Of a DNA stretch of 64,000 nt, positions 23,993-60,268 are shown in pieces. Position numbers and translations under genes: made by a program. Each line of letters starts with the position of its first letter. Position 1 is the first letter of the stretch. The notes under the pieces are model-generated. The model was not told the origin of the DNA. It saw nothing but the letters and a program-made list of their open reading frames with translations, and did not search any database. The DNA lies in NCBI GenBank assembly GCA_024640845.1, contig JAHEEE010000004.1, forward strand, positions 14,567 through 78,566. Reading direction: 5' to 3'. Source of the stretch: Myxococcales bacterium (GTDB taxonomy: Bacteria > Myxococcota_A > Polyangia > Polyangiales > Houyiibacteriaceae).

Positions 23993-24472
23993 ATGAATCT
24001 CATGGGGTCTACCGTTCTTGCAGTCACGGATCTGACATCTGCGAGCTACAAGCTCGTGGGGTTCGCGGCCTTCATTGCGGGGCCGACCGACGGCGAGGTC
24101 GTGCTGGTGTCGACCTATGGCGGGGCTGGTGGGGGGCGACGTTCCGAGCCTCCGCCCAGTGAGCGCCGGAATCCAGATCGCTGGAGGGAAAAGGTCGAGG
24201 CGAGGCTCCGGCAGGAAGGCCAGCTCCTCGAGCGTCAGCGCCAGTGGTGCGCCGACCGCGGTGTGCGGTGCCGTGCCGAGCTCTACGAGGAAGGGCGGTG
24301 GCCCGATTTCGTGCTTCAGAGCGCCGAGCGCTCTCGTGTCGACCTGATTTTGGTGGGTATCCAACTGATGGCGTCCGCCGACCAGATCAGCGCCGCGGAT
24401 CTCAAGCGCCTCGTCGAGGACGCCCCGTGCCCGGTCAGCGTGGTGCGGCTTCCCGGCCTTTTTGCCTTCTGA
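23993..24472 (+). CDS. Universal stress protein (single, divergent USP domain)
   Basis: Starts 'MNLMGSTVLAVTD' and ends with 'VDLILVGIQ...APCPVSVVR', the USP hallmarks. The track ORF start at 23774 is an extension. Confidence 0.6.
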   Translation: MNLMGSTVLAVTDLTSASYKLVGFAAFIAGPTDGEVVLVSTYGGAGGGRRSEPPPSERRNPDRWREKVEARLRQEGQLLERQRQWCADRGVRCRAELYEEGRWPDFVLQSAERSRVDLILVGIQLMASADQISAADLKRLVEDAPCPVSVVRLPGLFAF

Positions 24473-24529
24473 GCGCCGGGGTCGCTTTGCGTGCTTGACA
24501 CCAAGGGCGCAATTTGTGAGCCACACCTC

Positions 24530-25708
24530 ATGGCCGACCCCAGCCTGCTCCCCACACTCCGCCAGTATGTGGGGTTTGACGATGCATCCGCTCAGCGCTT
24601 GCAGAGGCTCGCGCCGCGGATGCGTCGCTTCTACCAGGGCGTCGTGGACCAGTTCTACCAGGCGATTCTCGAAGACCCCGGCGCACGCGCGGTCCTGAAG
24701 AACGAAGCGCAGGTGAGCCGGCTCCAGGTCTCGTTGCGGGACTGGCTCGAAGGCCTGTTGTCTGGGCCCTACGATGAGCAGTACTTCGAGAAGCGCGCGC
24801 GAATCGGCCGCATGCACGTGAAGGTGGGGCTCGAGCAGCGGTACATGCTTTCCGCCATGAATGTGATTCGCGTGGGGTTGCACCGTGGTTTGTCGGAGAT
24901 CTCCACCCCCGGGCCGGCCCAAGTCCTCGATCACCGAGCCATCGACCAGATTTGTGACATCGAGCTCGCGATCATGCTCGAGACCTATCGAGAGGACTAT
25001 GTTCTCAAAAAGACGGCCGAGGCCGAGTCTCTCGCAGTGATGGGCCGGCTCACGGCAGGTTTGGCGCACGAGGTGAGGAATCCTCTCAACGCTGCCAAGC
25101 TTCAACTCGACGTGCTGCGACGCAATGCTGCGGCCGTGCAGGAGGAATCGACTCGACGCAAGATCGAGCGTCGCACCAATCTCGTACAGGACGAGCTTCG
25201 CAGGCTGTCACTCTTGCTAGACGACTTCCTCAACCTCGCGCGCGCGCGCAGACTCGACCCAGTGCGATGTGAAGCTGGTGCGCTACTCACCGAGGTCATC
25301 GAGCTTCGGCGTCCTGAGATCGAGTCGCAGGGTATCGAGTTCATCGACGACATCGACTGCGCCCCCTGTGAGCTCGATGCCGAGCGCGATCGCTTGAAGC
25401 AGGTGGTCAACAACCTGATCACGAACGCGGTCGAAGCCGTGGCCGAAAGCGGCCAACCGCGCATTCAAATCACCAGCCGCGCGGGCGGCGAGCGATGGGA
25501 GGTGGCGGTCATCGACAACGGGCCTGGCATCTCCCCCGAGGTCGGCGCTCGCGCGTTCGAGTCGTTCGTCACCACCAAGGACGCGGGCACGGGTCTCGGC
25601 TTGGCGATCGTCAAGCGAATCATCGATCTGCACGGCGGACGGGCCGCCCTGGCCCCGGAGCCGAGTGGCGGGACCCGCGCATCCTTCTGGATCCCATCCC
25701 GGGGCTAG
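24530..25708 (+). CDS. Globin-coupled sensor histidine kinase
   Basis: The N-terminal protoglobin/GCS domain ('RIGRMHVKVGLEQRYML') holds a candidate proximal His. It is followed by the HisKA H-box 'GLAHEVRNPLN' and HATPase_c motifs 'DNGPGI' and 'GTGLGLAIV'. Confidence 0.85.
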   Translation: MADPSLLPTLRQYVGFDDASAQRLQRLAPRMRRFYQGVVDQFYQAILEDPGARAVLKNEAQVSRLQVSLRDWLEGLLSGPYDEQYFEKRARIGRMHVKVGLEQRYMLSAMNVIRVGLHRGLSEISTPGPAQVLDHRAIDQICDIELAIMLETYREDYVLKKTAEAESLAVMGRLTAGLAHEVRNPLNAAKLQLDVLRRNAAAVQEESTRRKIERRTNLVQDELRRLSLLLDDFLNLARARRLDPVRCEAGALLTEVIELRRPEIESQGIEFIDDIDCAPCELDAERDRLKQVVNNLITNAVEAVAESGQPRIQITSRAGGERWEVAVIDNGPGISPEVGARAFESFVTTKDAGTGLGLAIVKRIIDLHGGRAALAPEPSGGTRASFWIPSRG

Positions 25709-25715
25709 AAGACAA

Positions 25716-27164
25716 CTAGTCGAGAGCGGGCGCTTGGTAACCCCACTCTTTGACGCGGTACTGGATCTTTCGTTGACTGATCCCGAGAATCTCGGCGGCT
25801 CGTGCCGTGGAGCCGTCGACTGCGTCGAGCGTGCGCAGGATCGCGATTCGTTCGAGCTCCGACATCGTGATGCCTGGAATCAGGGCCAAGATCGAACCAT
25901 CCTGCATGTCGCCGTGCGCAGAGGTTGGTAGGTCATCGCGTCGGATCAGATCGCCCTCGCACATGACCACAGCGCGCTCGATCGCATTCTCGAGCTCGCG
26001 CACGTTGCCGGGCCATGGGTAGATCATCAGGTGCTGCAGAGCCTCATCAGTGAGGCCCTTCACCGGCCGATCGTTCTCCTTGGCGTACTTGCGGAGGAAC
26101 CCTTGAGCCAGAAGCGGAATGTCGCTCCGCCGGACGCGGAGCGGTGGAACGTCTAGCTGGACGACCTTGAGCCGGTAGTAGAGGTCCTCTCGAAATCGAC
26201 CCTCATCCACGCGCTGCTTCAGGTTGCGGTTCGTCGCCGCGACTACGCGGACATCTACCTTGAGCGTTTCGTTGCCGCCAACGCGCTCGAACTCTCGCTC
26301 TTGGAGGAAGCGCAGAAGCTTGATCTGCACGCTCGGTGGGATTTCGCTGACTTCGTCCAGGAACAACGTGCCGCCATCGGCCTGTTTGAAGCGACCTTCA
26401 CGTCTACCCGCCGCGCCGGTGAAGGAGCCGCGCTCGTGACCGAACAGCTCCGACTCGAGGAGCGTCTCGCTCAGTGAGGCACAATTGAGCCGAATGAACG
26501 GTTTGTCTTTTCGCTTGGAATTCTGGTGGATCGCGGCCGCGATGAGCTCTTTGCCCGTCCCGGTTTCGCCGTGAATGAGCACCGTTGCGCGGCTCCCAGC
26601 CACCTGGGCGACGTTCTTCATCAGCCGTTGCATCGACGGGTGCTCGCCGATGATATTGCCGAACTGAAAGCGCTCGTCGACGCGCTGGCGAAGCTGGGCG
26701 GCTTCACGGCTAAGTCTCGTTCGCTCGAGCGCGCGGTCGACGATGGCGATGACAGCATCGAGCTCGAGTGGCTTGGTCAGATAGCTTTCCGCTCCGAGCT
26801 TGATCGCTTTGACCGCGGTATCGATCGTCGCGAATGCAGTCATCACGATGAAAGTCGCGTGCGGCGCGATCGGACGCCCCCGCTCGATGAGGGACAGCCC
26901 ATCCATTCCGGGCATCTTGAGATCAGTCAGTACGACGTCGGGGTCGGCTTGCTCCACCTGCAGCAGCGCAGTCCTCCCGTCGGCGGCGGTGCTCACCGAG
27001 TACCCAGCATCGTCGAGTAGCTCCGCGAGCGCGTTCCGCGCATTCGCCTCGTCGTCGACGACGAGGATCTTCCCTTTTCGTCCATCGGAACGCAGCGGGA
27101 GGGTTGTGGTCAGGTCGGATGCTGAGGCTGAGGTTACGCTTGTCATGGTATTTCTGTTCGGCAT
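25716..27164 (-). CDS. Sigma-54-dependent response regulator (NtrC-family bEBP)
   Basis: Has a REC domain ('KILVVDDE...VLTDLKMPGMDG'), an AAA+ domain with 'GETGTGKE' and 'GSFTGA' (a GAFTGA variant), and a C-terminal Fis-type HTH ('AAEILGISQRKIQYRVKEWG'). Confidence 0.93.
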   Translation of the reverse strand: MPNRNTMTSVTSASASDLTTTLPLRSDGRKGKILVVDDEANARNALAELLDDAGYSVSTAADGRTALLQVEQADPDVVLTDLKMPGMDGLSLIERGRPIAPHATFIVMTAFATIDTAVKAIKLGAESYLTKPLELDAVIAIVDRALERTRLSREAAQLRQRVDERFQFGNIIGEHPSMQRLMKNVAQVAGSRATVLIHGETGTGKELIAAAIHQNSKRKDKPFIRLNCASLSETLLESELFGHERGSFTGAAGRREGRFKQADGGTLFLDEVSEIPPSVQIKLLRFLQEREFERVGGNETLKVDVRVVAATNRNLKQRVDEGRFREDLYYRLKVVQLDVPPLRVRRSDIPLLAQGFLRKYAKENDRPVKGLTDEALQHLMIYPWPGNVRELENAIERAVVMCEGDLIRRDDLPTSAHGDMQDGSILALIPGITMSELERIAILRTLDAVDGSTARAAEILGISQRKIQYRVKEWGYQAPALD

Positions 27165-27175: not shown

Positions 27176-28603
27176 CTAAGTCGGTGCGGAGGCTCCCTTG
27201 CCCCCCGAAATCTCAGGAGCTCTAGCGGCGGCGAGCTCCATGTACTCGGCGAACGCGTTCTCGAGGTCTTCGACGAATTCGTGGACGTCCGGGAACGATT
27301 CCCAATCCGCGTTGAACCCCCAGTGCAGGCCACCGTTATAGCTGAATAGCGCGATGCCGAGATTCTGGTTCCGCATCAGTGGCACCATCGGAAAAATGGC
27401 TTTCATCGGTGCGCCCAGGAGGTACAGCGGAAGCGGCGGTCCGGGCACGTTGGTGATGACGAGGTTGTAGGTGCGGAGCTGCATCGCAGCCTTGTAGAGC
27501 TCAGAGACGATGCGCTTGGTAGTGAGGTCCGCGATTTCTTCGATGAGCTCGGCGCCACCTGTCTGGTTGGACTCTTTCTTGAGCTTCGTCGTGATCGCGA
27601 TCACCTTCTTCAGCCGCTCGATCGGGTTGGGCTCGGAGATCGGCAAATCAGCGAGCAACATGGCGACGTGGTTGCCGCCGGACGCGCCGCCTACCTTGCG
27701 CGTGTTCACCGGCAGCATCGTTCGGAAGCCTTCGATCGCGTCGACGTCTTCATTGCGACGAATGAGGAAACGGCGGACCGCGCCGGTCGTGGTAGCGACC
27801 ACGACATCATTGATGGTGCCGCCAAGCGTGTTCTTGACCGCTTTGACGTCATCGAGCCGAAGTGACGTCCAGTCGAACCGCCGGTAGGGGCTGATGTCGC
27901 GCTCCGTGAACATGGTCTTGGGGGCCGGAATCATCCCTGACATGAGGAGACGGCGAACGCCTTGGAAGTTGTCGCGAACTCGAGGCATGAAGTGTGTAAG
28001 CTCGCGGATACCTTCCACCCGGTGCTTGAGCTCGGACCGGACGAGCTCGAGACGCCCTGGCGCAGGGCGAGGCTTCCATTCCTTGGGTACTCGCTCCTCT
28101 GCGTTCGGCATGATCTGCAAGAGAGCCTGGAGAAGCTCCACACCCGCGACGCCGTCGACCATGCAGTGGTGCACCTTGACCACGAGCGCAAACCTGTCGT
28201 TCTCGACGCCTTCGACGACCCAAAACTCCCAGAGTGGACGGCTGCGATCGAGATGCTGAGAAAACAGTCTTCCAACCAGCCGCTTCAGCGAACGCTCGTC
28301 GCCTGGCATCGGCAAACGGGTGTGTCGCAAGTGGAAGTGCATGTTGAACCGTTCGTCGTCGACCCACACCGGGTGTTTCAGGCCAGGCACGTACTCCACC
28401 CGCTGCCGGTAACGCGGGATCGAGTCGAGAGCGGCCTCGGTGTACCGCGTGAGTCGCTCGATATCGAGACCGCCATGATCCAACATCAGGGGTTTGGCAT
28501 CGAAGAGGAGGGCAGCGCCAACATGCATCGGCGCCGTCTTCGCTTCGACGTCCAGGAAGGTGGCGTCCAGGGCGCTCAAACGCTCGTGGAATGTATCCGG
28601 CAT
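27176..28603 (-). CDS. Wax ester synthase/diacylglycerol acyltransferase (WS/DGAT)
   Basis: Has the active-site motif 'HHCMVDGVAG' (HHxxxDG) and the N-terminus 'MPDTFHERLSALDATFLDVE'. Its stop is 11 nt upstream of the bEBP start. The track start at 28624 is a TTG lying inside the promoter. Confidence 0.9.
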   Translation of the reverse strand: MPDTFHERLSALDATFLDVEAKTAPMHVGAALLFDAKPLMLDHGGLDIERLTRYTEAALDSIPRYRQRVEYVPGLKHPVWVDDERFNMHFHLRHTRLPMPGDERSLKRLVGRLFSQHLDRSRPLWEFWVVEGVENDRFALVVKVHHCMVDGVAGVELLQALLQIMPNAEERVPKEWKPRPAPGRLELVRSELKHRVEGIRELTHFMPRVRDNFQGVRRLLMSGMIPAPKTMFTERDISPYRRFDWTSLRLDDVKAVKNTLGGTINDVVVATTTGAVRRFLIRRNEDVDAIEGFRTMLPVNTRKVGGASGGNHVAMLLADLPISEPNPIERLKKVIAITTKLKKESNQTGGAELIEEIADLTTKRIVSELYKAAMQLRTYNLVITNVPGPPLPLYLLGAPMKAIFPMVPLMRNQNLGIALFSYNGGLHWGFNADWESFPDVHEFVEDLENAFAEYMELAAARAPEISGGKGASAPT

Positions 28604-28619
28604 GGCAGCGGTCCTATCT

Positions 28620-28635
28620 AGCAAGATGCGAGCCC
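28620..28635 (-). promoter_or_regulatory. Sigma-54 (-24/-12) promoter candidate
   Basis: The minus strand reads GGGCTCGCATCTTGCT. GG-N10-GC spacing is correct, the -12 TTGCT is perfect, and the -24 reads GGGCTCG versus TGGCACG. Confidence 0.55.
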
Positions 28636-28689
28636 ATACGTGTTTCCAACAATATTGCGATTGACAGGTGTTCTCAGGCCCGCGGAGGG

Positions 28690-28732
28690 TGCAAACGATG
28701 CGTATGGCGTTTTAGGAGACGCATAATATGCG
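28690..28732. promoter_or_regulatory. Tandem UAS candidates (TGCA-N5-TGCG and CGCA-N5-TGCG)
   Basis: TGCAaacgaTGCG (28690-28702) and gaCGCAtaataTGCGcc (28720-28732) have centres 30 bp apart. They lie 62 and 92 bp upstream of the minus-strand -24 element. Confidence 0.55.
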
Positions 28733-28786: not shown

Positions 28787-29221
28787 ATGTCTCAGCTTCT
28801 GACGCGAGAGTTGATGACCCAGCCGGTGATTACGGTCGGGCCAATGAGCCCTCTTCGTGAAGTGATCAACCTCATGGAGACCCACCGAGTTCGCCACGTA
28901 GCGGTGGTCGAGCCTGATACGGAACGCCTGCTCGGTTTGATTTCGCACCGCGATGTCTTGCGAAGCCAGGAGGGGAGCCTCTCTGGCTCGCCGTCAGAAG
29001 AACAAGTTCACATGAACCGGTGGATCGAAGCACGTTGGGTGATGACGAAAGAAGTGCGCACGGTCTATCCCGAAACACCCGCGCTCGAGGCAGCCCTCAT
29101 GTTGCGGTCACAGGGATATGGATGCGCACCTGTCGTCGAGCATGGTCGCTTGGTTGGCATCTTAACCGAGGCGGATTTCGTGGATTACGCAATTCGAATC
29201 TTGTCTGATCCAGGGGTCTGA
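28787..29221 (+). CDS. CBS-pair domain protein
   Basis: 144 aa with two CBS motifs ('HRVRHVAVV', 'GCAPVVEHGRLVGILTEADF'). An AGGAGG ribosome-binding site lies 5 nt upstream. Confidence 0.85.
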   Translation: MSQLLTRELMTQPVITVGPMSPLREVINLMETHRVRHVAVVEPDTERLLGLISHRDVLRSQEGSLSGSPSEEQVHMNRWIEARWVMTKEVRTVYPETPALEAALMLRSQGYGCAPVVEHGRLVGILTEADFVDYAIRILSDPGV

Positions 29222-29261
29222 TCGCCCGCACTCCTCTCCCGGCAGACCCGAGCTCCAAACC

Positions 29262-29277
29262 TGGCACGGTGCTTGCT
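29262..29277 (+). promoter_or_regulatory. Sigma-54 (-24/-12) promoter
   Basis: TGGCACGGTGCTTGCT is a full consensus match. The ATG of the tandem USP lies only 14 nt after the -12 C. Confidence 0.7.
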
Positions 29278-29289
29278 GCAGTATGGTGC

Positions 29290-30180
29290 ATGACCATCAA
29301 GACGATTGTCGTCGGCACCGATCTCGGCGAGTCCGGGCGGCGAGCGATGCAACTGGCGGTTCAAACTGCCCGAGCGACGAACGCAACGCTCTGGCTGGTG
29401 CATGCAAGCGAGGTCGGCTTGGAGCACGGACTGCGCGAGTCGCCGCTCGGCGTTGCCGCCCACGCGCTGCGCCAGCGGATCAAGGGACGCTTCGAGAGCT
29501 CGCTGCAGAAGCTCGAGAGCGAGCGCAGGGAATGCGAGACCGCGGGCTTGAGTTGCCAGACTTCGTGCGAAGAGGGTCAGCCGTGGGAGACGATCCTCCG
29601 AACGGCCGTTTCGGTCAACGCCGACCTGATCGCCGTTGGCGATCCGGCGGGCTCAATTGGCTTGCCCGAGCGGTTGCTCGGCTCGACCGCCGAACGGGTC
29701 GTGCGACAGGCGCCCTGCTCGGTCTTGGTGGTTTGCGGGCGGACTCGAGAGGACTACCAAGGAGCTCGCATCGCGGTCGGGGTCGACTTCTCGCCTCACG
29801 GCATCGAAGCGGTTCGCTGGGCCCGTGACGTGGCGAGCGCCGTCAACGGGGAGGTCGCCCTGTTTCACGTGGTCCCTCATCCGATCACCGAAACCATGCT
29901 GCCCACTGAATGGCCGAGCGTGCTGAGGGGGCTCGCTTCGGCTGCACATGCACGGCTCACCCAACTCGTCGTCAGTGAGGGGCTCGCACCCAATACCTCG
30001 ATTCGCGTGCTCGATGGCGCGGTTGGCAAGATGCTCTGCAATGCGGTCGCCGAAGCCGAGGCCGACTTGCTCTTCGTAGGCAGCAGGGGGCATGGGCGGC
30101 TGCGTGGCATCATGCTCGGAGACACCCCGCAGTACTGCCTGCGCTACTCTCCGGTGCCTGTGCTTGCCGTGCGTCCCTGA
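29290..30180 (+). CDS. Universal stress protein, tandem USP domains
   Basis: Starts 'MTIKTIVVGTDLGESG'. Contains 'ADLIAVG...APCSVLVV' and a second domain 'ARIAVGVDFS...ADLLFVGSRGHGRL...SPVPVLAV'. Confidence 0.9.
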   Translation: MTIKTIVVGTDLGESGRRAMQLAVQTARATNATLWLVHASEVGLEHGLRESPLGVAAHALRQRIKGRFESSLQKLESERRECETAGLSCQTSCEEGQPWETILRTAVSVNADLIAVGDPAGSIGLPERLLGSTAERVVRQAPCSVLVVCGRTREDYQGARIAVGVDFSPHGIEAVRWARDVASAVNGEVALFHVVPHPITETMLPTEWPSVLRGLASAAHARLTQLVVSEGLAPNTSIRVLDGAVGKMLCNAVAEAEADLLFVGSRGHGRLRGIMLGDTPQYCLRYSPVPVLAVRP

Positions 30181-31726: not shown

Positions 31727-31963
31727 GTTTTTGCCGGGTGCTCTGCCAGTATACCAAGTGCAGGTCGCCCGCCCACGTTGCCGGCTCTTCGACTTGCGCT
31801 ACTTAGATCAGGCGATGGCCAAAACATGGATAGTGGTGGCCCATCAGGCGGGCGCGCCCGACGGCGAGATCGATATCGACCGTCCCGGACGATCGTTTCG
31901 AAAGGTCATGGCCGTTTGAGGCGTGCTCTGGCAGCGACCGAAGCAAGCGAAGAGGTAAAAGAG

Positions 31964-46570: not shown

Positions 46571-46573
46571 CTA

Positions 46574-48382: not shown

Positions 48383-48406
48383 AGTGCCCCCTTTAGGGCC
48401 AAGGGC

Positions 48407-48994: not shown

Positions 48995-49172
48995 GGGGTA
49001 CCTCCAACTCCTCTTCGAGGGGAATGCGTGCGTTGTGATCCGCCTCGGCTGCGCTCATCCGCATCACGCGAACGACTACGACTAGAAACACGGTGAAAAA
49101 CAGAAGCAGCGCGATGACTGGGTAGAGCAACGCGGGGCTCTGCGCGAAGAACTCTGAAGCAAACCGGCTCAT
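48987..49172 (-). CDS. ccoQ: CcoQ/FixQ-like small membrane subunit
   Basis: 61 aa with a single TM segment ('[20 protein letters not shown]'). It lies between ccoNO and ccoP, with ATGA overlap to the ccoNO stop. Confidence 0.55.
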
Positions 49173-51511: not shown

Positions 51512-51686
51512 ACTCGTCCTCTTCCCTCTCCGTCGTTGGGGTCACCGGCTTTTCATCGTCAAGCGGCAGCAAAGCAAGGCGATCGGCCTGATCGAACGTG
51601 CCTTGCCGTACGGTCCACGCGAAGAACGCCACGGCGACGCCAACCAATACTACGCAAACGAAAATCAGTAAGATCAAGATCTCCAT
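51486..51686 (-). CDS. ccoS: cbb3 oxidase maturation protein CcoS/FixS
   Basis: '[33 protein letters not shown]' gives the typical CcoS size and sequence. Confidence 0.75.
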
Positions 51687-54082: not shown

Positions 54083-54816
54083 GGTGTATGCTGATGGTGT
54101 TCGTGTGCGGCCCCGGCATCGGACGCAGAGCCCTCCTCAGAAGGACCGTGGCATGCTGCCGTGTCGCCGTGGCGCAGCGCGTGAACCGGTCGAATGACGA
54201 ACATGACGGCGCCGAGCGCGAGCACGACTGCGAGAATGCGGGAGGTCGTAGGTCGCGGGCGGCGCGAGAAGCGCTCGAACAGCCACGCCGCCCCGACCAA
54301 GCCGACGCCGCTCACCATGGCGAATGCCAACATGCTCAGAGCGCCGGCCGTGGCGGCCCCAGTCGATGCGGCGATGAGAACCGCGGCTGCGAGCGCCCCG
54401 CAGGGGAGCAGCGCCGTGCCGAGCCCCACGAAGAACGGATGGCGTCCGAGCGCGCGAACCACGTTGGACCCGGTCGACTTCGAAGCCGCTTCCTCTTTGG
54501 TACGCAGCGAGACCAAGGCTTGGTCGGGGCGTCGCCACAAGCGAAACGCGGCCAGACCCAAACCGAGCGCAAGCGACCAGCTCAGAAGCGCGCTGCCCCA
54601 TGCGCCTGGCAAGCTCACCGCTGTCGCGCCGCCCACCGCGCCCGCGGTCCCACCGAGGACGGAGTAACTGATGAAGCGTCCGAGCTGATAGCGGCCTTGA
54701 CCCAGTGCTCCTGGGCTTCCGCTGCATGCATAGGCCGCCAAAGGGCCGCACATCGCAGTGCAATGCGGAACCGATGCGAGGCCTGCGGCAGCCCCGGCAA
54801 TTACAGCCGTCCACAT
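54079..54816 (-). CDS. DsbD_2 / TauE-SafE-like membrane protein (HCxxMCGP motif)
   Basis: 245 aa and multi-TM, with 'VPHCTAMCGPLAAYAC'. Its stop overlaps the ccoI start. Proteins of this kind commonly accompany ccoI/ccoS. Confidence 0.65.
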   Translation of the reverse strand: MWTAVIAGAAAGLASVPHCTAMCGPLAAYACSGSPGALGQGRYQLGRFISYSVLGGTAGAVGGATAVSLPGAWGSALLSWSLALGLGLAAFRLWRRPDQALVSLRTKEEAASKSTGSNVVRALGRHPFFVGLGTALLPCGALAAAVLIAASTGAATAGALSMLAFAMVSGVGLVGAAWLFERFSRRPRPTTSRILAVVLALGAVMFVIRPVHALRHGDTAACHGPSEEGSASDAGAAHEHHQHTP

Positions 54817-54853: not shown

Positions 54854-54869
54854 CGCAACCCATATGCCA
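54854..54869 (-). promoter_or_regulatory. Sigma-54 (-24/-12) promoter for the cco operon
   Basis: The minus strand reads TGGCATATGGGTTGCG (TGGCAT-N5-TTGC). It lies 38 nt upstream of the ATG at 54816. Confidence 0.65.
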
Positions 54870-54900
54870 CGGGTTCTTGGGTCTCCCTTATACTCGAAGA

Positions 54901-54913
54901 CGCATATTTTGCG
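54901..54913. promoter_or_regulatory. UAS candidate CGCA-N5-TGCG
   Basis: gaCGCAtatttTGCGcg, centred 39 bp upstream of the minus-strand -24 GG, in a divergent intergenic region. Confidence 0.55.
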
Positions 54914-54981: not shown

Positions 54982-55830
54982 ATGGCAACCGAACGCCGCA
55001 TGATCCCGCGCGAACACGGCGCCTACGCGGAGCTTCTCTTCCCGATCGTCACGGTTTTCTTGGGTGGCTTGCCAACGATCTCAACCTGCTTGCTCGCGCT
55101 TGGCGCCATCGCTGCATTCCTCGCGAACGAGCCGCTGCTCGTGCTGGTCGGGCAACGTGGCACCCGGATAAAGCGCGACGAGGGCGACCGCGCCAATCGC
55201 GCGCTGCTGATTTTCGCAATCGTCGCGCTTGCATCCGGGCTTTCGGGCCTCGCCCTCGCCCCGCGGGCTGCGCAGGTTGCCGTGGTGCTGCCGCTATTGC
55301 TCGGTGGGACCCTGATCTTATTGGCGATTCAGGGGCTCGAGCGGAGCGTGTTCGGCGAAGCCCTGGCGGCCGCGGCATTATCTTCGGTGGCGGTGCCGCT
55401 AGGGCTTTCTGCCCACTTGGAGCTGACCGCTGTGCTTGCCGTCGCGTTGATTTGGGCGGTCAATGCGCTCCTCGGGACGTCAGTCGTTCGGCTGACGCTC
55501 GCGCGCACGAAGGCCAAGACCGCGGAGGAGACTGCGGCCGTGCACCTGAAGCGCACAGGCCTCATCCTGTTGTGCCTGGGGGTGATCGCGGTCGGCGTGG
55601 CCGCGCCGTTTGGCACCCGAGTCGGGCTCTGGGTGTTGGCGGCCGCTGTGCCCGCCGCCGTTGCTGTGCTCGTGATGGCCGCCCTTCGGCCAACGGCCCG
55701 CCGGCTCCGCCTGATGGGATGGAGCCTCGTTGGCGCCAACCTTCTTTCGCTGATTGCAGTGGTCACGACGCTAAGGATCATTCAGGATTTCAACGCGGTG
55801 GAACCGACCCTACCGTTTCCCATGTTCTAG
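54982..55830 (+). CDS. YwiC-like family membrane protein
   Basis: Starts 'MATERRMIPREHGAYAELLFP' (the family-typical P-x-EHGA-W/Y start) and has about 8 TM segments. The track ORF from 54034 is an antisense extension. Confidence 0.65.
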   Translation: MATERRMIPREHGAYAELLFPIVTVFLGGLPTISTCLLALGAIAAFLANEPLLVLVGQRGTRIKRDEGDRANRALLIFAIVALASGLSGLALAPRAAQVAVVLPLLLGGTLILLAIQGLERSVFGEALAAAALSSVAVPLGLSAHLELTAVLAVALIWAVNALLGTSVVRLTLARTKAKTAEETAAVHLKRTGLILLCLGVIAVGVAAPFGTRVGLWVLAAAVPAAVAVLVMAALRPTARRLRLMGWSLVGANLLSLIAVVTTLRIIQDFNAVEPTLPFPMF

Positions 55831-55841
55831 AGGAGAAGCTT

Positions 55842-56255
55842 GTGCTGGTAAAAGACATCATGACCGAAAACCCCGTGACCGCGACGGAGCTCATGACCGT
55901 AGCTGAGGCCCTCGGGTTGTTGTACGAGCTCGATGTTCGCCACCTCCCGGTGGTCCGCGGAAGCGAGCTCGCTGGAATCGTGAGCGACCGTGACCTTCGT
56001 GGCTTCACCGCGCCGAGCGAAGACGAGGCGATCGAAGCCATCGAGAGGGCACGAAGCTCGAACGTCGGCAACTTCATGAACACCGATCCCATTCGCGTCG
56101 ATCCGGAGACCAACGTTCGGGAGATCGTAGAGCTCATGCTCGTGCATCGCGTTGGCGCGATTCCCGTGTGCGACCTCGACACGGGCGACCTGCTCGGCAT
56201 CGTGAGCTATATCGACGTGTTGCGAGCGCTGCAGGAGACACTGGGACAGGCGTGA
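55842..56255 (+). CDS. CBS-pair domain protein
   Basis: GTG start preceded by AGGAG (55831-55835). Contains 'DVRHLPVV' and 'HRVGAIPVCD'. Confidence 0.8.
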   Translation: MLVKDIMTENPVTATELMTVAEALGLLYELDVRHLPVVRGSELAGIVSDRDLRGFTAPSEDEAIEAIERARSSNVGNFMNTDPIRVDPETNVREIVELMLVHRVGAIPVCDLDTGDLLGIVSYIDVLRALQETLGQA

Positions 56256-57565
56256 AGCTCGTCACCTCACACGAGAACACCGACTTCGATGGGCTGGCCT
56301 CGTGTGTAGCGCTTCAGAAGCTCCTGCCAGGGGCCGTGATTGGCCTCAGCGGCGGGTTCGCCTCGAACGTCCACCAGTACCTGACGCTCCACAGGGATCG
56401 GTTTCGCGTCGAGCGTTGTGAGGATCTCGATTTGTCCGAGGTCGATCTCCTCGCCGTGACCGACGTTCGAAAGCGCCATCGCCTCGCGCATGTCGAGCCG
56501 GTGTTCCAGCGAGCCGTCGACAACCCGCGAAGCGTGCGCGTCATCGTGTGGGATCACCATCCGGCGTCGCCCGACGATCTTCATGCTGACGAAGAGCACG
56601 TGCAGCCGGTCGGCTCGGTCACCACGTTGCTCGTCGAGGAGCTCCGAGCGCGCGGGATCGAGATCGACCGGAAAGAGGCGACCCTGTTTTCGCTCGGCAT
56701 TCACGAGGACACCGGATCGCTCTCGTACGCCCGTTCGAGCTCGCGGGATGCCACGGCTCTGGCTTGGCTCCTCGGACACGGCGCACAACCGGCTCTCCTG
56801 CAGCGATTCCTTCGACCCGCGCTCAACGGAATGGAACGCGACTTGCTGGTTCGACTGATCGACGGTGTGAAGGAACTGCCGCGATTCGGGGTCTCGATCG
56901 GGGTCTCGGCGTTGGAAACCGAAGAAGTCCCCGCGAGTCTCGCGCTCGTCTCGACCGAGGCGTTTCGCATTCTGTCTCACGACGCGCTCTTTTGCATCTA
57001 TCGCTTGCCCAACGGCAAGTCGCACATCGTCGGCCGTGCTCAAGCCAACGCGGTGCCCATTGGTGCGATCCTCGAAAGGCTCGGTGGGGGAGGGCACGCC
57101 GGCGCCGGCTCGGCGTCGGTTCACGGTCTCTCGCTCGACGAGATCGTGAGTCGCCTCGAGGAAGGCGTCGACCGTTGCTGCCTCCAGCCGCAGTTCGTAC
57201 GCGACCTCATGTCGAGCCCTGTTCGCACGGTCGGCCCCGGCACACCACTTTCCGAGCTCGCGAGCTCGTTGCGCGAGTGGGGGCATACCGGTGCCCCGGT
57301 CGTCGTCGATGGGCAACTCGTCGGGGTCGTTTCACGCCGCGACGTCGAGCGCGCGCAACGCGAAGGCCGAGGCCATCTCGCTGTGAAGAGCTGCATGGCG
57401 CACCATGTCTCGAGCATCGGTCCCGACGCGCCGCTCCAAGAAGCCCTCGAGCAGATGCAGACGCACAACATCGGCCGGCTCCCGGTGCTCGATGGGACGC
57501 GGGTGATCGGCATCCTTTCCCGCGAGGACGTTCTCGGATATCTCTACGAGCAGTCGCCCTGCTGA
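56252..57565 (+). CDS. DHH/DHHA1 phosphoesterase fused to a C-terminal CBS pair
   Basis: GTG start overlaps the previous stop (GTGA). Contains 'HENTDFDGLAS', 'WDHH' and 'GGGGHAGAG', followed by two CBS motifs. Confidence 0.8.
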   Translation: MKLVTSHENTDFDGLASCVALQKLLPGAVIGLSGGFASNVHQYLTLHRDRFRVERCEDLDLSEVDLLAVTDVRKRHRLAHVEPVFQRAVDNPRSVRVIVWDHHPASPDDLHADEEHVQPVGSVTTLLVEELRARGIEIDRKEATLFSLGIHEDTGSLSYARSSSRDATALAWLLGHGAQPALLQRFLRPALNGMERDLLVRLIDGVKELPRFGVSIGVSALETEEVPASLALVSTEAFRILSHDALFCIYRLPNGKSHIVGRAQANAVPIGAILERLGGGGHAGAGSASVHGLSLDEIVSRLEEGVDRCCLQPQFVRDLMSSPVRTVGPGTPLSELASSLREWGHTGAPVVVDGQLVGVVSRRDVERAQREGRGHLAVKSCMAHHVSSIGPDAPLQEALEQMQTHNIGRLPVLDGTRVIGILSREDVLGYLYEQSPC

Positions 57566-57599: not shown

Positions 57600-59030
57600 T
57601 CAGGCCCGCGCTCTGAGAGTCGCGACCTCACTCACGAAGCCGGCGCCGATGTCCTCCAGGTCCGGGACCAGATCGGCGCAGGCCAAGGCGCCGAAACACA
57701 AGCGGTCGATTGCGCTCATGACGGTGATGTTGAGCCCGGAGCCTTGTTGCACCGGTCCAAGCGGGAAGAGGTGCGTGAGCCTCGCGCCCGTCGTGTAGAG
57801 AGGCTCGGGCGGACCCGCGATGTTCGAGATGACGAGGTTCCAAAGGGGGGGGAGTCGATCCGCCAGGTGCTGTGAGGAGAAGAGGCTCATTGCGTGGGTG
57901 AGCATCCAAGGGACCGTGATGTTCGTTACGACGTCGGCGAAGTTCTTGAGGATATCCCCGCCACCGCCGCTTTGATGCCGCATCTTCATGCGGTTGGTTT
58001 CCTCGTGAATTCGCAGCAGTCGCTCGAGTGGGTCTGCGACCTGGATAGGCAAGTGCGCGCGAATGACCGAGACTCGATTGGCTGCTTGATCTCCCTCGTG
58101 GCGAACCGAGACCGGAACCGTCGCCACCAAAGGGCGGTCGGGGAGCCCTCCATGAAGAGCGAGCCAATCGCGCAGGCTCGCCGTGCACGCCGCCAGTATT
58201 ACGTCATTCACCGTGGTCCCAAACGCTTGCTTGATGGCCTTCACGTCTTCGAACGGAACGTCGACGAGCGCCACGGAGCGATTTCGGGTCAGCGCGCCGT
58301 TGAACGGCGTGGCGGGCGACTCGAAGAGCGGTCCTTTGGACGCGTGGTTCTCATCCGTTGAAGCGTGCGACTCGGAAGGTACACGGGCCCTCACGGCCGA
58401 GGTGACTTTCGCGGCGGCCTCGATCGCGCGCCGCGGTTTGCCAAGCAGCGTGCGAAGCGTGTCCGCAGCAAGCCAGGGAACACTCGGCTCGCGGTCCGGG
58501 ATCCACGGTTCTTCTGGAGGTGGGAACGCCCGGCCCTCGGGGGTCGTGTCGAGCAGCTCGCCCGCAATCGCCGCCGCGCGGCCGCCATCCATGGCGGCAT
58601 GGTGGATCTTCATGATCAGCGCGAGCTTGTCGCCCTCGAGCCCCTCGACGAGCATCACCTTCCACAGCGGCCGATCGCGATCGAGGCAACTCGCTGCAAA
58701 GGTGCCGACGAGGTCACAAAGCTCGCGCATGCCGCCAGGTGCGGGAAGCGAGGTGCGGACGAGATGATGATCGAGGTCGAAGGCCGGGTCCTCAATCCAG
58801 TGGGGATCGCCGATCTTCAAGGGCCCTTGGACGATCCGGCGGCGAAAGGCGGGAATCAGATGAATCCGCTCGGAGAAGACGCGTCGAGTGACGTCGAATC
58901 GTGACAGCTCGCCGTTCGTAGCGGGCGGAAGCTCATCGGTCTCGAAGAGCAAGACGCCCATCGTGTGCATCGGCATCTCGGGCGTTTCGGCGTACAGCAT
59001 TGCCGCGTCGAGGTTGGAAACGGGGATCAT
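57600..59030 (-). CDS. Wax ester synthase/diacylglycerol acyltransferase (WS/DGAT), second copy
   Basis: Starts 'MIPVSNLDAAMLYAETPEMPMH' and has the active-site motif 'HHAAMDGGRAA'. The start overlaps the upstream stop (ATGA). The 696-aa track ORF is 5'-extended into the upstream gene. Confidence 0.88.
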   Translation of the reverse strand: MIPVSNLDAAMLYAETPEMPMHTMGVLLFETDELPPATNGELSRFDVTRRVFSERIHLIPAFRRRIVQGPLKIGDPHWIEDPAFDLDHHLVRTSLPAPGGMRELCDLVGTFAASCLDRDRPLWKVMLVEGLEGDKLALIMKIHHAAMDGGRAAAIAGELLDTTPEGRAFPPPEEPWIPDREPSVPWLAADTLRTLLGKPRRAIEAAAKVTSAVRARVPSESHASTDENHASKGPLFESPATPFNGALTRNRSVALVDVPFEDVKAIKQAFGTTVNDVILAACTASLRDWLALHGGLPDRPLVATVPVSVRHEGDQAANRVSVIRAHLPIQVADPLERLLRIHEETNRMKMRHQSGGGGDILKNFADVVTNITVPWMLTHAMSLFSSQHLADRLPPLWNLVISNIAGPPEPLYTTGARLTHLFPLGPVQQGSGLNITVMSAIDRLCFGALACADLVPDLEDIGAGFVSEVATLRARA

Positions 59031-60268
59031 GATGCGGCTCCAGGCGTCAAGAACCCGAGCCCCACCATGAATCTGGCCATCTCGGTCAGATACTCGCCGC
59101 GATCGAGGTGTATGCTGTGGCTCCCCGGGAACCAATGAATCCGGCACCGGTTCCAGTGGTCCCAGAGGATCCTCGAATGCTTCGGCGGCGCGAGGCGATC
59201 TCCGGCTCCACCGACGATCATCAAGCGCTCGGGTGGGAGCACCGGTGGGTATGTGAGCGGGCAGCTCACAGCCACGAGGCGACGCGCATCCGCGGGGCTG
59301 AGCCCGGACGCGGCGAGCGCCGCACGCATCAGCGCGCCGATGGGCTGCCACTCCAATACCAGATCGGCCACCGTGATGATCGGCACGTTGGGCAATGCGA
59401 AGGCGAGCTTGTCTTCCACGCTTGCGAGCATCGCCGAGATGAATCCACCCAAGCTGAGGCCGGTCACGCCCACCTGCTCGACTCCTTGTTGGCGCTGGAG
59501 CCAATCGAGCAGAATCCGAAAATCGAACACCGACTGCGCGACGGCTTCGTTGAATCGAGACGAGCCGCCGGCGAAGAAGCCGTGCCCTGAAAACGGAGAG
59601 AACCGAGTTTGGCGCGGCCCATGAAAGGGAAGCGTGAAGAGCGCGATGTCGCAGCCCATTCGGTAGAACCAAGGGAGCGCGAAGAACCACTCGTTGATGA
59701 GGTAGCCCTCTGCAGTGAAGCCATGGATTGCCACGATCGTGGGTCGTGGGCCTTTGCGGTGGCGCACGAGGCGTGCGTACGCGACGCGGTTTTCGTCGTG
59801 GCGGAGATACGGCTTGTGCTGGTCGGGATGGACGGGTTGAAAAGGGCTATCGAAACGCAGCACCTCGCAGATGCCATCCTCCGGTTCGAAACGAGGAAAC
59901 CAGCGCCCTCGTTTCGTTCGCACGCGCACGCCCGAAGGCGGCTCTCGAAAGAACCGAGTCGGATCGCGGGACTCGGCCATGTCCGCGTAGAGCCCAACGC
60001 TCCGCATCGACCTCCGGAGCTCGATCGGATTGAACCCGAAAGGAATGGCGGTTGCGCCCACCATCGTGCCGAAAATTGCCCTGACGATGTGGTCGAACCC
60101 CGCTGCGGCGGCGATCTGCAGCCGATCGGCGCGAGCCAAGTCGAAGGCTTCGGGCCGCCGAGAGAAATCTCGGTCGAGCTGCTCCCACCACCGGCCTGTG
60201 GGCATTAATGGCGCCGAGCGTTCATAGGATTCGTGAACGATGCGCGACACAACCGACGAGTCGACCAT
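59027..60268 (-). CDS. Alpha/beta hydrolase (putative lipase/esterase) co-transcribed with WS/DGAT
   Basis: 413 aa with the nucleophile elbow 'GLSLGG' and an alpha/beta-fold layout. Confidence 0.7.
   Translation of the reverse strand: MVDSSVVSRIVHESYERSAPLMPTGRWWEQLDRDFSRRPEAFDLARADRLQIAAAAGFDHIVRAIFGTMVGATAIPFGFNPIELRRSMRSVGLYADMAESRDPTRFFREPPSGVRVRTKRGRWFPRFEPEDGICEVLRFDSPFQPVHPDQHKPYLRHDENRVAYARLVRHRKGPRPTIVAIHGFTAEGYLINEWFFALPWFYRMGCDIALFTLPFHGPRQTRFSPFSGHGFFAGGSSRFNEAVAQSVFDFRILLDWLQRQQGVEQVGVTGLSLGGFISAMLASVEDKLAFALPNVPIITVADLVLEWQPIGALMRAALAASGLSPADARRLVAVSCPLTYPPVLPPERLMIVGGAGDRLAPPKHSRILWDHWNRCRIHWFPGSHSIHLDRGEYLTEMARFMVGLGFLTPGAAS

Follow-up and report, generated by a model that had tools for sequence, protein, structure and literature searches.

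[quoted passage not shown]

The 64-kb stretch of DNA analysed here (the window) includes, at 23.9-54.9 kb, a conserved island about 31 kb in length that is found in uncultured sediment and soil myxobacteria. From sequence comparison we consider it likely, with a probability of roughly 0.7, that the island is a local regulon of a haem-globin histidine kinase and an NtrC-type sigma-54 activator and, on the same reading, the Polyangiales counterpart of NmpU/NmpR of Myxococcus xanthus. Pfam scans, together with a phmmer search of every ORF in the window, recovered every item of the gene inventory that an initial annotation had listed for positions 23993-60268: five USP genes with seven USP domains, four CBS genes, two WS/DGAT genes, an APH-fold/P-loop kinase fusion, a hemerythrin, a glycogen operon and a cbb3 oxidase cluster (Table 1). 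In the remaining 28 kb of the window, which contain roughly 23 genes, the same scans found no USP or CBS gene, and the enrichment of both families in 23993-60268 is real. Embedded among these USP, CBS and storage genes are the protoglobin histidine kinase and the sigma-54 activator, whose Pfam architectures bear out the sensor and regulator types originally proposed. The host belongs to an uncultured lineage of the Polyangiales (Myxococcota); judging by their isolate names, related MAGs probably come from sediment, sand and soil.

Table 1. Genes, sigma-54 promoters and enhancer boxes, by position in the window (promoter scores from a position weight matrix, PWM).
Feature	Position	Strand	Details
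NmpR-type enhancer box CGCAAAAAATGCG	23869-23881	.	74 bp upstream of USP_a promoter
Sigma-54 promoter GTGGCACGCACTTTGCT	23955-23971	+	USP_a-globin kinase operon; 16.9 bits
USP_a	23993-24472	+	degenerate single-domain USP; Pfam Usp 28.5 bits (weak domain)
Globin-coupled histidine kinase	24491-25708	+	protoglobin-HisKA-HATPase_c (Pfam); NmpU/AfGcHK homologue
NtrC-type sigma-54 activator	25716-27164	-	REC-Sigma54_activat-HTH_8 (Pfam); AAA+ with GSFTGA; NmpR counterpart
WS/DGAT #1 (wax ester synthase/diacylglycerol acyltransferase)	27176-28603	-	Pfam; TIGR02946 410 bits; HHCMVDG
Sigma-54 promoter TGGGCTCGCATCTTGCT, weak	28620-28636	-	WS/DGAT #1; 12.4 bits
NmpR-type box pair TGCAAACGATGCG (one mismatch), CGCATAATATGCG (perfect)	28690-28732	.	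30 bp apart
CBS_a	28787-29221	+	CBS-pair protein (Pfam)
Sigma-54 promoter CTGGCACGGTGCTTGCT	29261-29277	+	tandem USP gene; 18.3 bits, top score in window
USP2_b	29290-30180	+	tandem USP; Pfam Usp, 2 domains, 169 bits
APH-fold/P-loop kinase fusion	30185-31726	-	Rv2004c-like architecture; C-terminal AAA_33; island-syntenic
Host_attach/baeRF remnant, decayed	31799-31919	+	tblastn vs L003 protein, E 2e-8; internal deletions
CBS_b	31964-32728	+	two CBS pairs (Pfam)
Glycogen operon	32919-41861	-	Pfam; gene order conserved
GT3 glycogen synthase-phosphorylase fusion	32919-37172	-	glycogen operon
GH57	37169-38371	-	glycogen operon
GT4/5 transferase	38380-39909	-	glycogen operon
Debranching enzyme GDE	39861-41861	-	glycogen operon
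Sigma-54 promoter TTGGCACGCCTCCTGCT	41922-41938	-	glycogen operon; 16.1 bits
Perfect NmpR-type box pair	42000-42042	.	30 bp apart; upstream of glycogen promoter; kept at -170/-140
Hemerythrin operon, three genes	43616-45891	-	Pfam, motifs
Lipoprotein with two CxxCH motifs (dihaem cytochrome)	43616-44452	-	hemerythrin operon; motif check
USP2_c	44498-45394	-	tandem, with ATP motif; hemerythrin operon
Hemerythrin	45430-45891	-	hemerythrin operon
Sigma-54 promoter TTGGCGCATTCTTTGCA	45929-45945	-	hemerythrin operon; 16.5 bits; at -53 in 52/52 loci
Perfect NmpR-type box pair	45976-46017	.	29 bp apart; common to divergent hemerythrin and USP_d promoters; conserved
Sigma-54 promoter TTGGCACGAAGCTTGAT	46059-46075	+	USP_d-USP_e; 15.6 bits; at -33 in 48/52 loci
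USP_d	46091-46570	+	single-domain, with ATP motif (Pfam, motifs)
USP_e	46574-46984	+	single-domain, with ATP motif (Pfam, motifs)
cbb3 oxidase cluster	46994-54816	-	Pfam
CcoG	46994-48382	-	cbb3 cluster
CcoP	48407-48994	-	cbb3 cluster
CcoN-CcoO fusion	49169-51511	-	cbb3 cluster
CcoS	51486-51686	-	cbb3 cluster
CcoI P-type ATPase	51674-54082	-	cbb3 cluster
DsbD_2-family gene	54079-54816	-	cbb3 cluster
Sigma-54 promoter GTGGCATATGGGTTGCG, weak	54854-54870	-	DsbD_2-ccoI operon; 11.2 bits
Single perfect box	54901-54913	.	upstream of DsbD_2-ccoI operon
YwiC-like membrane protein	54982-55830	+	divergent from cco operon
CBS_c pair	55842-56255	+	divergent from cco operon
DHH-DHHA1-CBS	56252-57565	+	divergent from cco operon
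WS/DGAT #2	57600-59030	-	TIGR02946 427 bits
Alpha/beta hydrolase	59027-60268	-	upstream of WS/DGAT #2; 4-nt overlap, consistent with the pairing first noted

Common control is strongly supported in silico by the promoters and the sequences upstream of them. Sigma-54 promoters are carried by seven transcription units, most of which have CGCA-N5-TGCG palindromes upstream, in pairs spaced 29-30 bp. Six sites of at least 15 bits were observed in the window against 0.37 expected, five of which lie just upstream of island operons in the correct orientation, and the palindrome occurs 13 times against 4.0 expected, a count reached in none of 100 shuffles. Phylogenetic footprinting drew on 47 loci from genomes and 80 from metagenomes, with protein identities of 60-90%, and the cis-elements proved to be kept in some 45 species-level MAGs and some 50 metagenome contigs; the only invariant columns in the diverged intergenic alignments were the box half-sites and the GG/GC promoter cores. 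The consensus from 253 unique sites, (G)CGCA-N5-TGCG(C) with a modal spacing of 29-30 bp, is that of the EMSA-defined NmpR box, GCGCA-N5-TGCGC with a preferred gap of 14-15 nt (PMC11841059). These data support the view that the genes are a genuine and conserved unit, most of it apparently behind sigma-54 promoters with a common enhancer box.

The USP_a promoter lies at -35 to -40 in all 40 related loci, with GG and GC cores invariant in otherwise diverged DNA, and nearly all of these loci have a box at about -120 and often another at -90; here, a degenerate second half-site follows CGCAAAAAATGCG about 29 bp downstream. An atypical TGGGCTC...TTGCT element forms the WS/DGAT #1 promoter at -32 in nearly all of 35 loci and probably serves the activator gene too, which starts its own stretch 11 bp downstream of WS/DGAT #1. 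The TGCAAACGATGCG/CGCATAATATGCG pair sits between WS/DGAT #1 and CBS_a and is kept at -126/-96 from the former, which is -94/-64 from the latter; in 21 of 33 relatives CBS_a is preceded at -30 by a sigma-54 promoter of its own, which could not be detected in this window. CTGGCACGGTGCTTGCT ends 12 nt before the USP2_b ATG and is kept at -29 to -31 in 33/34 loci, and the glycogen promoter, also seen in the footprint alignment, is found at about -68 in 35/36. No internal promoters were found in the hemerythrin operon (56 to 61 loci). WS/DGAT #1 and the glycogen operon make up the storage arm of the predicted regulon, which the promoter and box data support. Membership of the DsbD_2-ccoI operon is tentative: a promoter of at least 12 bits is present in only 6 of 16 loci, although most of these loci have a box at about -95.

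The co-regulation originally suggested for the whole region is thus predicted for these seven units, and several other genes show no sign of it. The APH/P-loop fusion has no sigma-54 promoter in this window, and one of at least 11 bits is lacking in 22 of 24 loci. No regulon signals were detected for WS/DGAT #2 and its hydrolase, which are absent between nqrA and DHH-CBS in one relative (L100), and no sigma-54 promoter was found in this window for the YwiC-like, CBS_c and DHH-DHHA1-CBS stretch (54982-57565), nor any other regulon signal for its DHH-DHHA1-CBS gene, nor any such promoter or regulon signal for the acetyl-CoA hydrolase gene. At the position of the baeRF remnant, which has intact counterparts in 19 loci, relatives carry a sigma-54 operon of DUF5335, baeRF and CBS_b; the head of this operon has been lost in the present lineage.

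Both WS/DGAT proteins exceed the TIGR02946 cut-off of 310 bits and contain the HHxxxDG motif. The phosphotransferase/P-loop architecture first proposed for the fusion protein is borne out by an AlphaFold model (pLDDT 86.6), in which the N-terminal half resembles APH(2'')-Ia and the C-terminal half the P-loop kinase 2rhm; the source names this product 'aminoglycoside phosphotransferase family enzyme/predicted kinase'.

The island kinase has the same domain architecture as AfGcHK of Anaeromyxobacter sp. Fw109-5, whose globin domain is its top match among solved structures (5ohe, E 5e-31). Its Tyr56, His109 and His193 correspond to Tyr45, His99 and His183 of AfGcHK at a constant offset of +10/11 (PMC8697598); the haem ligands are kept, as is the spacing between globin domain and phospho-His. 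USP_a, which lacks the ATP motif, is the first gene of the sensor operon and is kept ahead of the kinase in related loci. Neither the window nor any clade locus has a histidine kinase core besides that of the kinase, or a REC domain besides that of the activator, and the island has no second sigma-54 activator.

The NmpRSTU system and the NmpR regulon of M. xanthus have been described previously (PMC6211767, PMC11841059; 2018 and 2025). As in the island, they combine a protoglobin histidine kinase (NmpU) with an NtrC-type sigma-54 activator (NmpR), and paired boxes of the same spacing lie upstream of -24/-12 promoters, with some sites within genes. Their targets likewise include a CBS protein, a USP, a P-type ATPase with cbb3, a hemerythrin and both regulator operons. 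The authors of that work had themselves drawn a link between the USP target and the mycobacterial dormancy regulon (PMC11841059). Box, spacing, neighbours and targets lead us to infer that the island activator is probably orthologous to NmpR. The island differs in several respects. The hybrid kinase NmpS and the double-receiver protein NmpT are absent from the window and from within 10 kb in any relative, whereas AfGcHK itself belongs to an nmpS-nmpT-nmpU arrangement (PMC11841059). In the island, a degenerate USP shares the operon of the kinase and a WS/DGAT that of the activator; the predicted targets additionally include WS/DGAT, the four-gene glycogen operon, tandem USPs and a dihaem cytochrome c; the whole target set is collected at one place; and no link to pilR was seen. 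The 'different regulator class' of the initial annotation is thus accurate as to globin kinase and NtrC-type activator, but it is no discovery: the type is that of NmpU/NmpR, and the island is an expanded variant rather than a new type of system.

On this basis the following mechanism may be proposed. Gas binding at the globin haem, with Tyr56 distal and His109 proximal, would set the autophosphorylation of His193, and the kinase would signal directly to the activator. The phosphorylation state of the activator (Asp81) would govern its oligomerisation on the pairs of (G)CGCA-N5-TGCG(C) boxes, which have a spacing of 29-30 bp and are situated some 60-110 bp ahead of the -24/-12 promoters, and the bound activator would then remodel sigma-54 RNA polymerase at the seven promoters. 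Predicted targets are the USP_a-kinase and WS/DGAT-activator operons (positive autoregulation), the tandem USP gene, the glycogen operon, the hemerythrin/USP/dihaem-cytochrome operon, the USP_d-USP_e operon and, more weakly, the ccoI-cbb3 operon. In M. xanthus, NmpR is phosphorylated by NmpS and not by NmpU (PMC6211767). Since neither NmpS nor NmpT is linked here, the island is either wired differently or relies on components encoded at another locus.

The initial annotation had interpreted the region as a convergent equivalent of the DosR (DevR) dormancy regulon of Mycobacterium tuberculosis, in which a fall in O2 would lead to a non-growing, storage-rich state, and we regard this as possible while placing it well short of even odds. 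Its statement that the organism belongs to a different phylum is correct, as the host falls within the Polyangiales. Both systems are autoregulated, two-component and haem-based, and share multiple USPs, a CBS protein, a WS/DGAT (Tgs1 in M. tuberculosis) and the APH/P-loop fusion. Some parallels of layout with DosRST also hold: in M. tuberculosis a USP gene heads the sensor operon (Rv3134c-devRS) and the APH/P-loop protein Rv2004c lies next to a tandem USP, as here, where a WS/DGAT gene also adjoins the regulator. Rv2004c, itself part of the DosR regulon, has phosphotransferase activity (PMC8701281), and hypoxia induces the orthologous M. xanthus regulon (PMC11841059). Against this, relatedness to the DosR-regulon proteins stands at the level of family only, with Rv2623 and Rv2626c no closer than unrelated members of their families: for one tandem USP, unrelated USPs score as well as Rv2623 (E 2e-9), for the other Rv2623 falls short of E 1e-6, and Rv2626c ranks only 23rd for the CBS protein. 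The Rv2004c-like gene lacks the regulon cis-elements here. The DosR regulon also includes alpha-crystallin (hspX), nitroreductases, narK2X, fdxA and nrdZ, and no HSP20, nitroreductase, nitrate-transport, ferredoxin or NrdZ gene is present among the genes scanned. The cbb3, hemerythrin and glycogen operons are not known to belong to the DosR regulon; the first two indicate continued respiration rather than shutdown, and the glycogen operon holds enzymes of breakdown (debranching enzyme, phosphorylase) as well as synthesis. DosR is a LuxR/NarL-type regulator working with sigma-70, in contrast to the NtrC-type activator and sigma-54, and its GAF-haem kinases DosS/DosT are active when deoxy, whereas the globin kinase is expected to be active when O2-bound (PMC8697598). 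The earlier interpretation is supported in part, for a conserved predicted regulon with a storage arm and for some parallels of layout; other points of likeness to DosR were unsupported or overstated.

The expected polarity of the kinase raises the opposite scenario, a response to the arrival of O2, which we think rather unlikely. Here the O2-bound, active kinase would, with no NmpS inverter, phosphorylate the activator directly, and the island of a mainly anaerobic or microaerophilic sediment bacterium would come on when O2 (or CO/NO) appears; it would then scavenge and respire trace O2 with stored glucan as reductant and protect the cell. The conserved haem ligands and globin-to-phospho-His distance agree with this, as do the sediment, sand and soil isolate names and the absence of other HK or REC domains from the window and every clade locus, lone neighbouring kinases and regulators usually being cognate partners. 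AfGcHK is active in its Fe(II)-O2, Fe(II)-CO and Fe(III) forms and inactive when deoxy (PMC8697598), and the NmpS inverter, the source of hypoxic induction in M. xanthus, is not linked to the island in the window or clade loci. However, NmpS and NmpT are possibly encoded elsewhere, sequence does not reveal the polarity of a sensor kinase, and low O2 is what induces cbb3 oxidases wherever they have been studied to date, the orthologous M. xanthus regulon included (PMC11841059). Because that regulon behaves so, induction of the island at low rather than high O2 seems somewhat the better expectation. It is very improbable that the genes are neighbours without common control, or answer to an enhancer-binding protein encoded elsewhere. 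Myxobacteria have many NtrC-like activators (PMC11841059), box binding by the island activator is a prediction, and the raw TGGCAC-N5-TTGC motif with up to two mismatches is not enriched alone (72 versus 58 expected). Yet an identical box and spacing recur at both regulator operons and five other promoters in about 100 loci, the box equals the known NmpR site, and only one sigma-54 activator is at hand.

The lxa locus of Burkholderia cenocepacia provides a further comparison, which its authors had themselves compared with the DosR regulon (PMC3721108). It is one co-regulated cluster with six USP genes and with storage-polymer, electron-transfer and cation-ATPase genes. It differs from the island in being proteobacterial, in its own 'lxa motif' in place of sigma-54/NmpR control, and in its alpha-crystallin, nitroreductase and ribonucleotide reductase genes, which the island lacks. 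USP-rich low-oxygen islands thus recur across phyla. Within the NmpU/NmpR-type reading that we prefer, three features of the Polyangiales island appear to be new: triacylglycerol/wax-ester and glycogen genes behind NmpR-type promoters, the gathering of every target into one supercluster, and an NmpS/NmpT inverter that is not linked to it. We propose that the island couples high-affinity respiration and O2 handling to nucleotide-binding stress proteins and to neutral-lipid and glycogen metabolism.

On sequence grounds, the most fitting description of the island is an expanded, locally two-component sigma-54 oxygen regulon of the NmpR type, in which neutral-lipid and glycogen genes are included. 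Genes were called from codon-position G+C (the window is approximately 63% G+C) and then scanned with Pfam, and a phmmer scan of all ORFs recovered a fourth CBS gene (55842-56255) beyond the codon-position call. These scans bear out the entire gene inventory, with its coordinates, that the initial annotation had given for 23993-60268, including the operon of WS/DGAT #2 and an alpha/beta hydrolase, whose genes lie on the same strand and overlap (see table). The two WS/DGAT proteins score 410 and 427 bits on TIGR02946 (cut-off 310) and both carry the active-site motif HHxxxDG, as HHCMVDG and HHAAMDG, respectively. Among the approximately 23 genes in the other 28 kb of the window there are no USP or CBS genes.

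Genes and predicted sigma-54 promoters of the island and its flanks (window positions; retention refers to related loci)
Feature	Position	Strand	Remarks
USP_a	23993-24472	+	followed by the kinase gene, 24491-25708 (+)
WS/DGAT #1	27176-28603	-	followed, 11 bp on, by the REC-AAA+-HTH_8 activator gene, 25716-27164 (-)
CBS_a, CBS pair	28787-29221	+	
USP2_b, tandem USP	29290-30180	+	
APH/P-loop protein, 513 aa	30185-31726	-	C-terminal AAA_33 (Pfam)
CBS_b, two CBS pairs	31964-32728	+	
Glycogen operon, four genes	32919-41861	-	
Acetyl-CoA hydrolase/transferase gene	42048-43316	-	
Operon of hemerythrin, tandem USP (USP2_c) and 278-aa protein	45891-43616	-	
USP_d and USP_e, single-domain USPs	46091-46984	+	
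cbb3 cluster: DsbD_2, CcoI, CcoS, CcoN-CcoO fusion, CcoP, CcoG	54816-46994	-	
YwiC-like gene, CBS_c pair, DHH-DHHA1-CBS gene	54982-57565	+	
Alpha/beta hydrolase gene and WS/DGAT #2	60268-57600	-	4-nt overlap
Sigma-54 promoter, USP_a	23955-23971	+	retained in 40/40 loci, -35 to -40
Sigma-54 promoter, tandem USP2_b	29261-29277	+	retained in 33/34 loci, -29 to -31
Sigma-54 promoter, glycogen operon	41922-41938	-	retained in 35/36 loci, about -68
Sigma-54 promoter, hemerythrin	45929-45945	-	retained in 52/52 loci, -53
Sigma-54 promoter, USP_d	46059-46075	+	retained in 48/52 loci, -33
Weaker site, WS/DGAT #1	28620-28636	-	atypical TGGGCTC-N5-TTGCT, conserved in nearly all of 35 loci, -32
Weaker site, DsbD_2-ccoI	54854-54870	-	weight-matrix scan

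The kinase contains the Pfam domains Protoglobin (103 bits), HisKA and HATPase_c. Its top PDB match is the globin domain of AfGcHK from Anaeromyxobacter sp. Fw109-5, and its distal Tyr, proximal His and phospho-His all lie at a constant offset from the AfGcHK positions; an exact-sequence look-up returned no record for it. The activator comprises Response_reg, Sigma54_activat (251 bits) and HTH_8, with GSFTGA at residue 246. A pair of this kind is also found in the NmpRSTU system of Myxococcus xanthus, where NmpU is a protoglobin kinase homologous to AfGcHK and NmpR is an NtrC-like activator (PMC6211767, PMC11841059). NmpR binds GCGCA-N5-TGCGC, as established by EMSA with site mutants, prefers two such sites 14-15 nt apart, and activates sigma-54 promoters (PMC11841059). 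Its regulon takes in the nmpR-containing CBS-protein operon, nmpUTS, a USP, a P-type ATPase with cbb3 genes, hemN-hemerythrin and pilR (PMC11841059). In the window, the core palindrome CGCA-N5-TGCG occurs 13 times compared with 4.0 expected, a count reached in none of 100 shuffles, and the copies are mostly paired, 29-30 bp apart and 60-110 bp upstream of sigma-54 promoters. Across the related loci, 253 unique sites give the consensus (G)CGCA-N5-TGCG(C) with a modal start-to-start spacing of 29-30 bp, that is, a 15-bp site plus a gap of 14-15 nt. At the level of sequence, the paired sites of the NmpR regulon, with their 14-15 nt gap upstream of -24/-12 promoters, are thus present here. From the matching consensus, spacing and targets, it follows that the cis-regulatory code here, and much of what it targets, are those of NmpR.

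The sigma-54 promoters themselves were sought with a weight matrix over the window, in comparison with shuffled sequence. Six sites reach at least 15 bits, as against 0.37 in shuffled sequence, and five of these lie just upstream of a unit and face it. The simple pattern TGGCAC-N5-TTGC with up to two mismatches is not enriched (72 versus 58 expected); only the high-scoring sites and their positions are informative. The sites have GG and GC exactly 10 nt apart in a TGGCAC-N5-TTGCW context, face their gene and have an activator site upstream. When the diverged intergenic DNA is aligned, the columns without variation fall in the half-sites of the boxes and in the GG/GC cores of the promoters, and in the related loci operon-internal genes have no promoter of their own. 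A match at 56831 (15.0 bits) was rejected as it is intragenic in the DHH-CBS gene. We found no sigma-54 promoter for the APH/P-loop, acetyl-CoA hydrolase or DHH-CBS genes, for the hydrolase-WS/DGAT #2 operon or, in the window, upstream of the YwiC-like gene. CBS_a and CBS_b also lack one in this window. CBS_a has its own sigma-54 promoter in 21 of 33 relatives, and in one related locus (L003) CBS_b closes a sigma-54 operon headed by DUF5335 and then a Host_attach/baeRF gene. Intact copies of the DUF5335 and baeRF genes are found in 19 loci, and a small ORF at 31799-31919 (+) is a decayed remnant of the Host_attach/baeRF (release-factor-like) gene; judged from these sequences, this lineage has lost DUF5335, intact baeRF and the promoter ahead of CBS_b. 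At four units (23955-23993, 28603-28636, 29261-29290 and 46059-46091) only 12-21 nt separate the promoter end from the start codon, a distance conserved in relatives (-29 to -36), and no Shine-Dalgarno sequence is recognised in between; leaderless or nearly leaderless sigma-54 transcripts are therefore predicted.

Homologues of the kinase and of the APH/P-loop protein come from uncultured Polyangiales/Myxococcales MAGs. Mapping by tblastn across 47 genome loci, each representing a species, and 80 metagenome contigs shows that the island order is kept almost everywhere from the USP_a-kinase operon to the cco operon, with protein identities of 60-90%; WS/DGAT #2 and its hydrolase are absent from this position in one relative (L100). 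The 278-aa protein (43616-44452, minus strand) is predicted always to share one transcription unit with hemerythrin and the tandem USP across the related loci. It matches no Pfam or NCBIfam model; its lipoprotein signal peptide and its two CxxCH motifs make it a probable dihaem cytochrome c. In 16 of 37 relatives (L014, L020, L021, L022, L028, L032, L033, L044, L046, L048 and L049 among them) the activator gene has a good sigma-54 promoter of its own (up to 17.8 bits) in the gap that separates it from WS/DGAT #1; in this window, where that gap is 11 bp, there is none. Within the glycogen operon, a 1417-aa protein (32919-37172, minus strand) consists of a GT3 (eukaryote-type) glycogen synthase fused to a DUF3417/alpha-glucan phosphorylase, so that a single polypeptide holds enzymes of opposite direction, and its length is kept in the related loci L001 and L002.

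Several further elements were seen outside this scheme. Between the boxes and the glycogen promoter, at approximately 41962-41985 on the minus strand, a block (TGTTGnCnnnnTTGTGACGGAA) is conserved in 12 aligned loci; a second regulator or a bending protein may bind there. Two NmpR-type boxes (51843 and 51873) stand 30 bp apart within coding sequence at the 3′ end of ccoI (51843-51885), with ccoNO some 340-370 bp downstream of them. Conservation of the first extends to its wobble positions, where CAA, a rare Gln codon, is kept in 17 of 18 loci at a GC3 of approximately 80%, and no sigma-54 promoter was found downstream of the pair. A sigma-54-like site elsewhere in ccoI (52017-52033, 14.8 bits) was rejected, since the DNA there codes for the conserved stretch of P-type ATPases around GDGxND and its conservation is explained by coding constraint. 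Upstream of the island, the long intergenic region 12079-12553 contains a perfect inverted repeat of approximately 23 bp (CTCGGAAAAACGCGATAGGGGTT and its complement, arms some 170 bp apart) and, at 12365, an orphan NmpR-type box that no neighbouring sigma-54 promoter accompanies. Adjacent genes for a membrane H+-pyrophosphatase and phosphoglucose isomerase (6924-10727, plus strand), which lack regulon signals, fit a low-energy, glucan-using lifestyle.

The island differs from NmpRSTU in three respects. All predicted targets are gathered in one place. WS/DGAT #1 and the four-gene glycogen operon stand behind NmpR-type promoters, and neither the word 'glycogen' nor 'acyltransferase' occurs in the 2025 NmpR paper (PMC11841059). 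Finally, the hybrid kinase NmpS (REC-HisKA-HATPase) and the double-receiver protein NmpT are not linked here: apart from the HK core of the kinase and the REC domain of the activator, no such domain occurs across the 64-kb window, nor within 10 kb in approximately 100 clade loci. This last difference bears on the polarity of the oxygen response. In M. xanthus, NmpR is not phosphorylated by NmpU, which instead phosphorylates and silences NmpS, the kinase of NmpR, and the regulon is consequently hypoxia-inducible (PMC6211767); NmpS and NmpT relay the signal and invert it (PMC6211767), and NmpR-dependent hypoxia induction has been shown for one target (PMC6211767, PMC11841059). AfGcHK shows activity when its haem is ferric or carries O2 or CO, and none in the deoxy state (PMC8697598). 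By analogy, a local pair that works directly and keeps the AfGcHK polarity would make O2 the inducer of the island; an NmpS-like protein encoded at another place in the genome, or a changed polarity, would make hypoxia the inducer, as in M. xanthus. We weakly favour hypoxia as the inducing condition because of the cbb3 and hemerythrin content. The most far-reaching form of the O2-induced alternative would have the four-protein Nmp relay reduced, in this Polyangiales lineage, to a plain globin kinase acting on a sigma-54 activator, as a direct gate of one 31-kb island that unites cbb3 respiration, hemerythrin and six or seven nucleotide-binding stress proteins with the metabolism of both neutral lipids and glycogen. 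Several of its transcripts would be leaderless sigma-54 mRNAs and, without the NmpS inverter, its O2 polarity could be opposite to that of both M. xanthus Nmp and mycobacterial DosST, such that the arrival of O2, not its loss, would turn on carbon storage and high-affinity respiration. Taken as a whole, we consider this combination unlikely, with perhaps one chance in four of being right.

The resemblance to the mycobacterial DosR regulon is of a looser kind. The only regulator pair is the protoglobin kinase with the NtrC-type activator, and neither a NarL/LuxR-type response regulator nor a GAF-haem kinase, the kinds of protein that control the DosR regulon, was found. The most specific parallel is the APH/P-loop architecture of a putative Rv2004c counterpart; Rv2004c joins an APH-like half at its N-terminus to a P-loop half at its C-terminus. 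For the island protein this architecture is confirmed by Pfam, a predicted model (pLDDT 86.6, pTM 0.88) and fold matches, the N-terminal 320 residues matching the aminoglycoside phosphotransferase APH(2'')-Ia (probability 1.0) and the C-terminal part the P-loop kinase 2rhm (TM 0.72); the gene itself is without regulon cis-elements. HGDLRLEH and Asp224 are invariant in 21 homologues and a Walker A motif is present. No NCBIfam model matches the protein, the JGI name for its relatives is 'aminoglycoside phosphotransferase family enzyme/predicted kinase', and the best 120 of 6093 homologue matches are close Polyangiales relatives only. Rv2004c is a DosR-regulon gene whose product has weak streptomycin phosphotransferase activity (PMC8701281). 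For the USP and CBS proteins, a search of solved structures supports the proposed kinship with DosR members at the family level and not as a specific relationship to Rv2623 or Rv2626c: the match of USP2_b to Rv2623 (3cis/2jax), E 2e-9, is equalled by those to Thermus and archaeal USPs, Rv2623 is absent at E 1e-6 for USP2_c, and Rv2626c ranks 23rd for CBS_a (E 1.8e-6). The ATP motif G-2x-G-9x-G(S/T) is present in three USP genes and absent from USP_a and the tandem USP at 29290. Pfam detected no HSP20, nitroreductase, nitrate transporter, ferredoxin or class II ribonucleotide reductase genes in the island and its flanks. The hallmark members of the DosR regulon are hspX (HSP20), Acg-type nitroreductases, narK2/narX, fdxA and nrdZ; cbb3, hemerythrin and a glycogen operon are not known to be among its members. 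Given the family-level likeness, the missing hallmarks and these additional genes, the parallel is one of partial convergence in function, over USP, CBS and neutral-lipid genes and with some striking similarities of layout, and not the mirror image that had been proposed. The original interpretation is partly supported; the regulator class, which it set apart from that of the DosR regulon, had already been described as M. xanthus NmpU/NmpR (PMC6211767, PMC11841059), and the USP target of NmpR had already been related to the USPs of the mycobacterial dormancy regulon (PMC11841059). A broader comparison with the DosR regulon is available for another USP-rich island, the Burkholderia lxa locus (PMC3721108).

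The predicted regulon, if real, approximately doubles what the NmpR-type oxygen regulon is known to cover and would tie wax-ester/triacylglycerol and glycogen metabolism directly to a haem-globin gas sensor via sigma-54. With seven promoters and one kinase-activator pair in a single island, it offers a compact natural test case for how a multi-step phosphorelay is simplified and whether its signal polarity changes in the process. Together with the DosR regulon and the lxa locus of Burkholderia, it also makes three well-defined examples of USP-rich low-oxygen gene sets that arose under unrelated regulators, and such sets bear on which parts of the programme are universal. Isolate names suggest that the lineage is widespread among MAGs from sediment and soil, and the island may therefore be of importance to the storage of carbon at oxic-anoxic interfaces.
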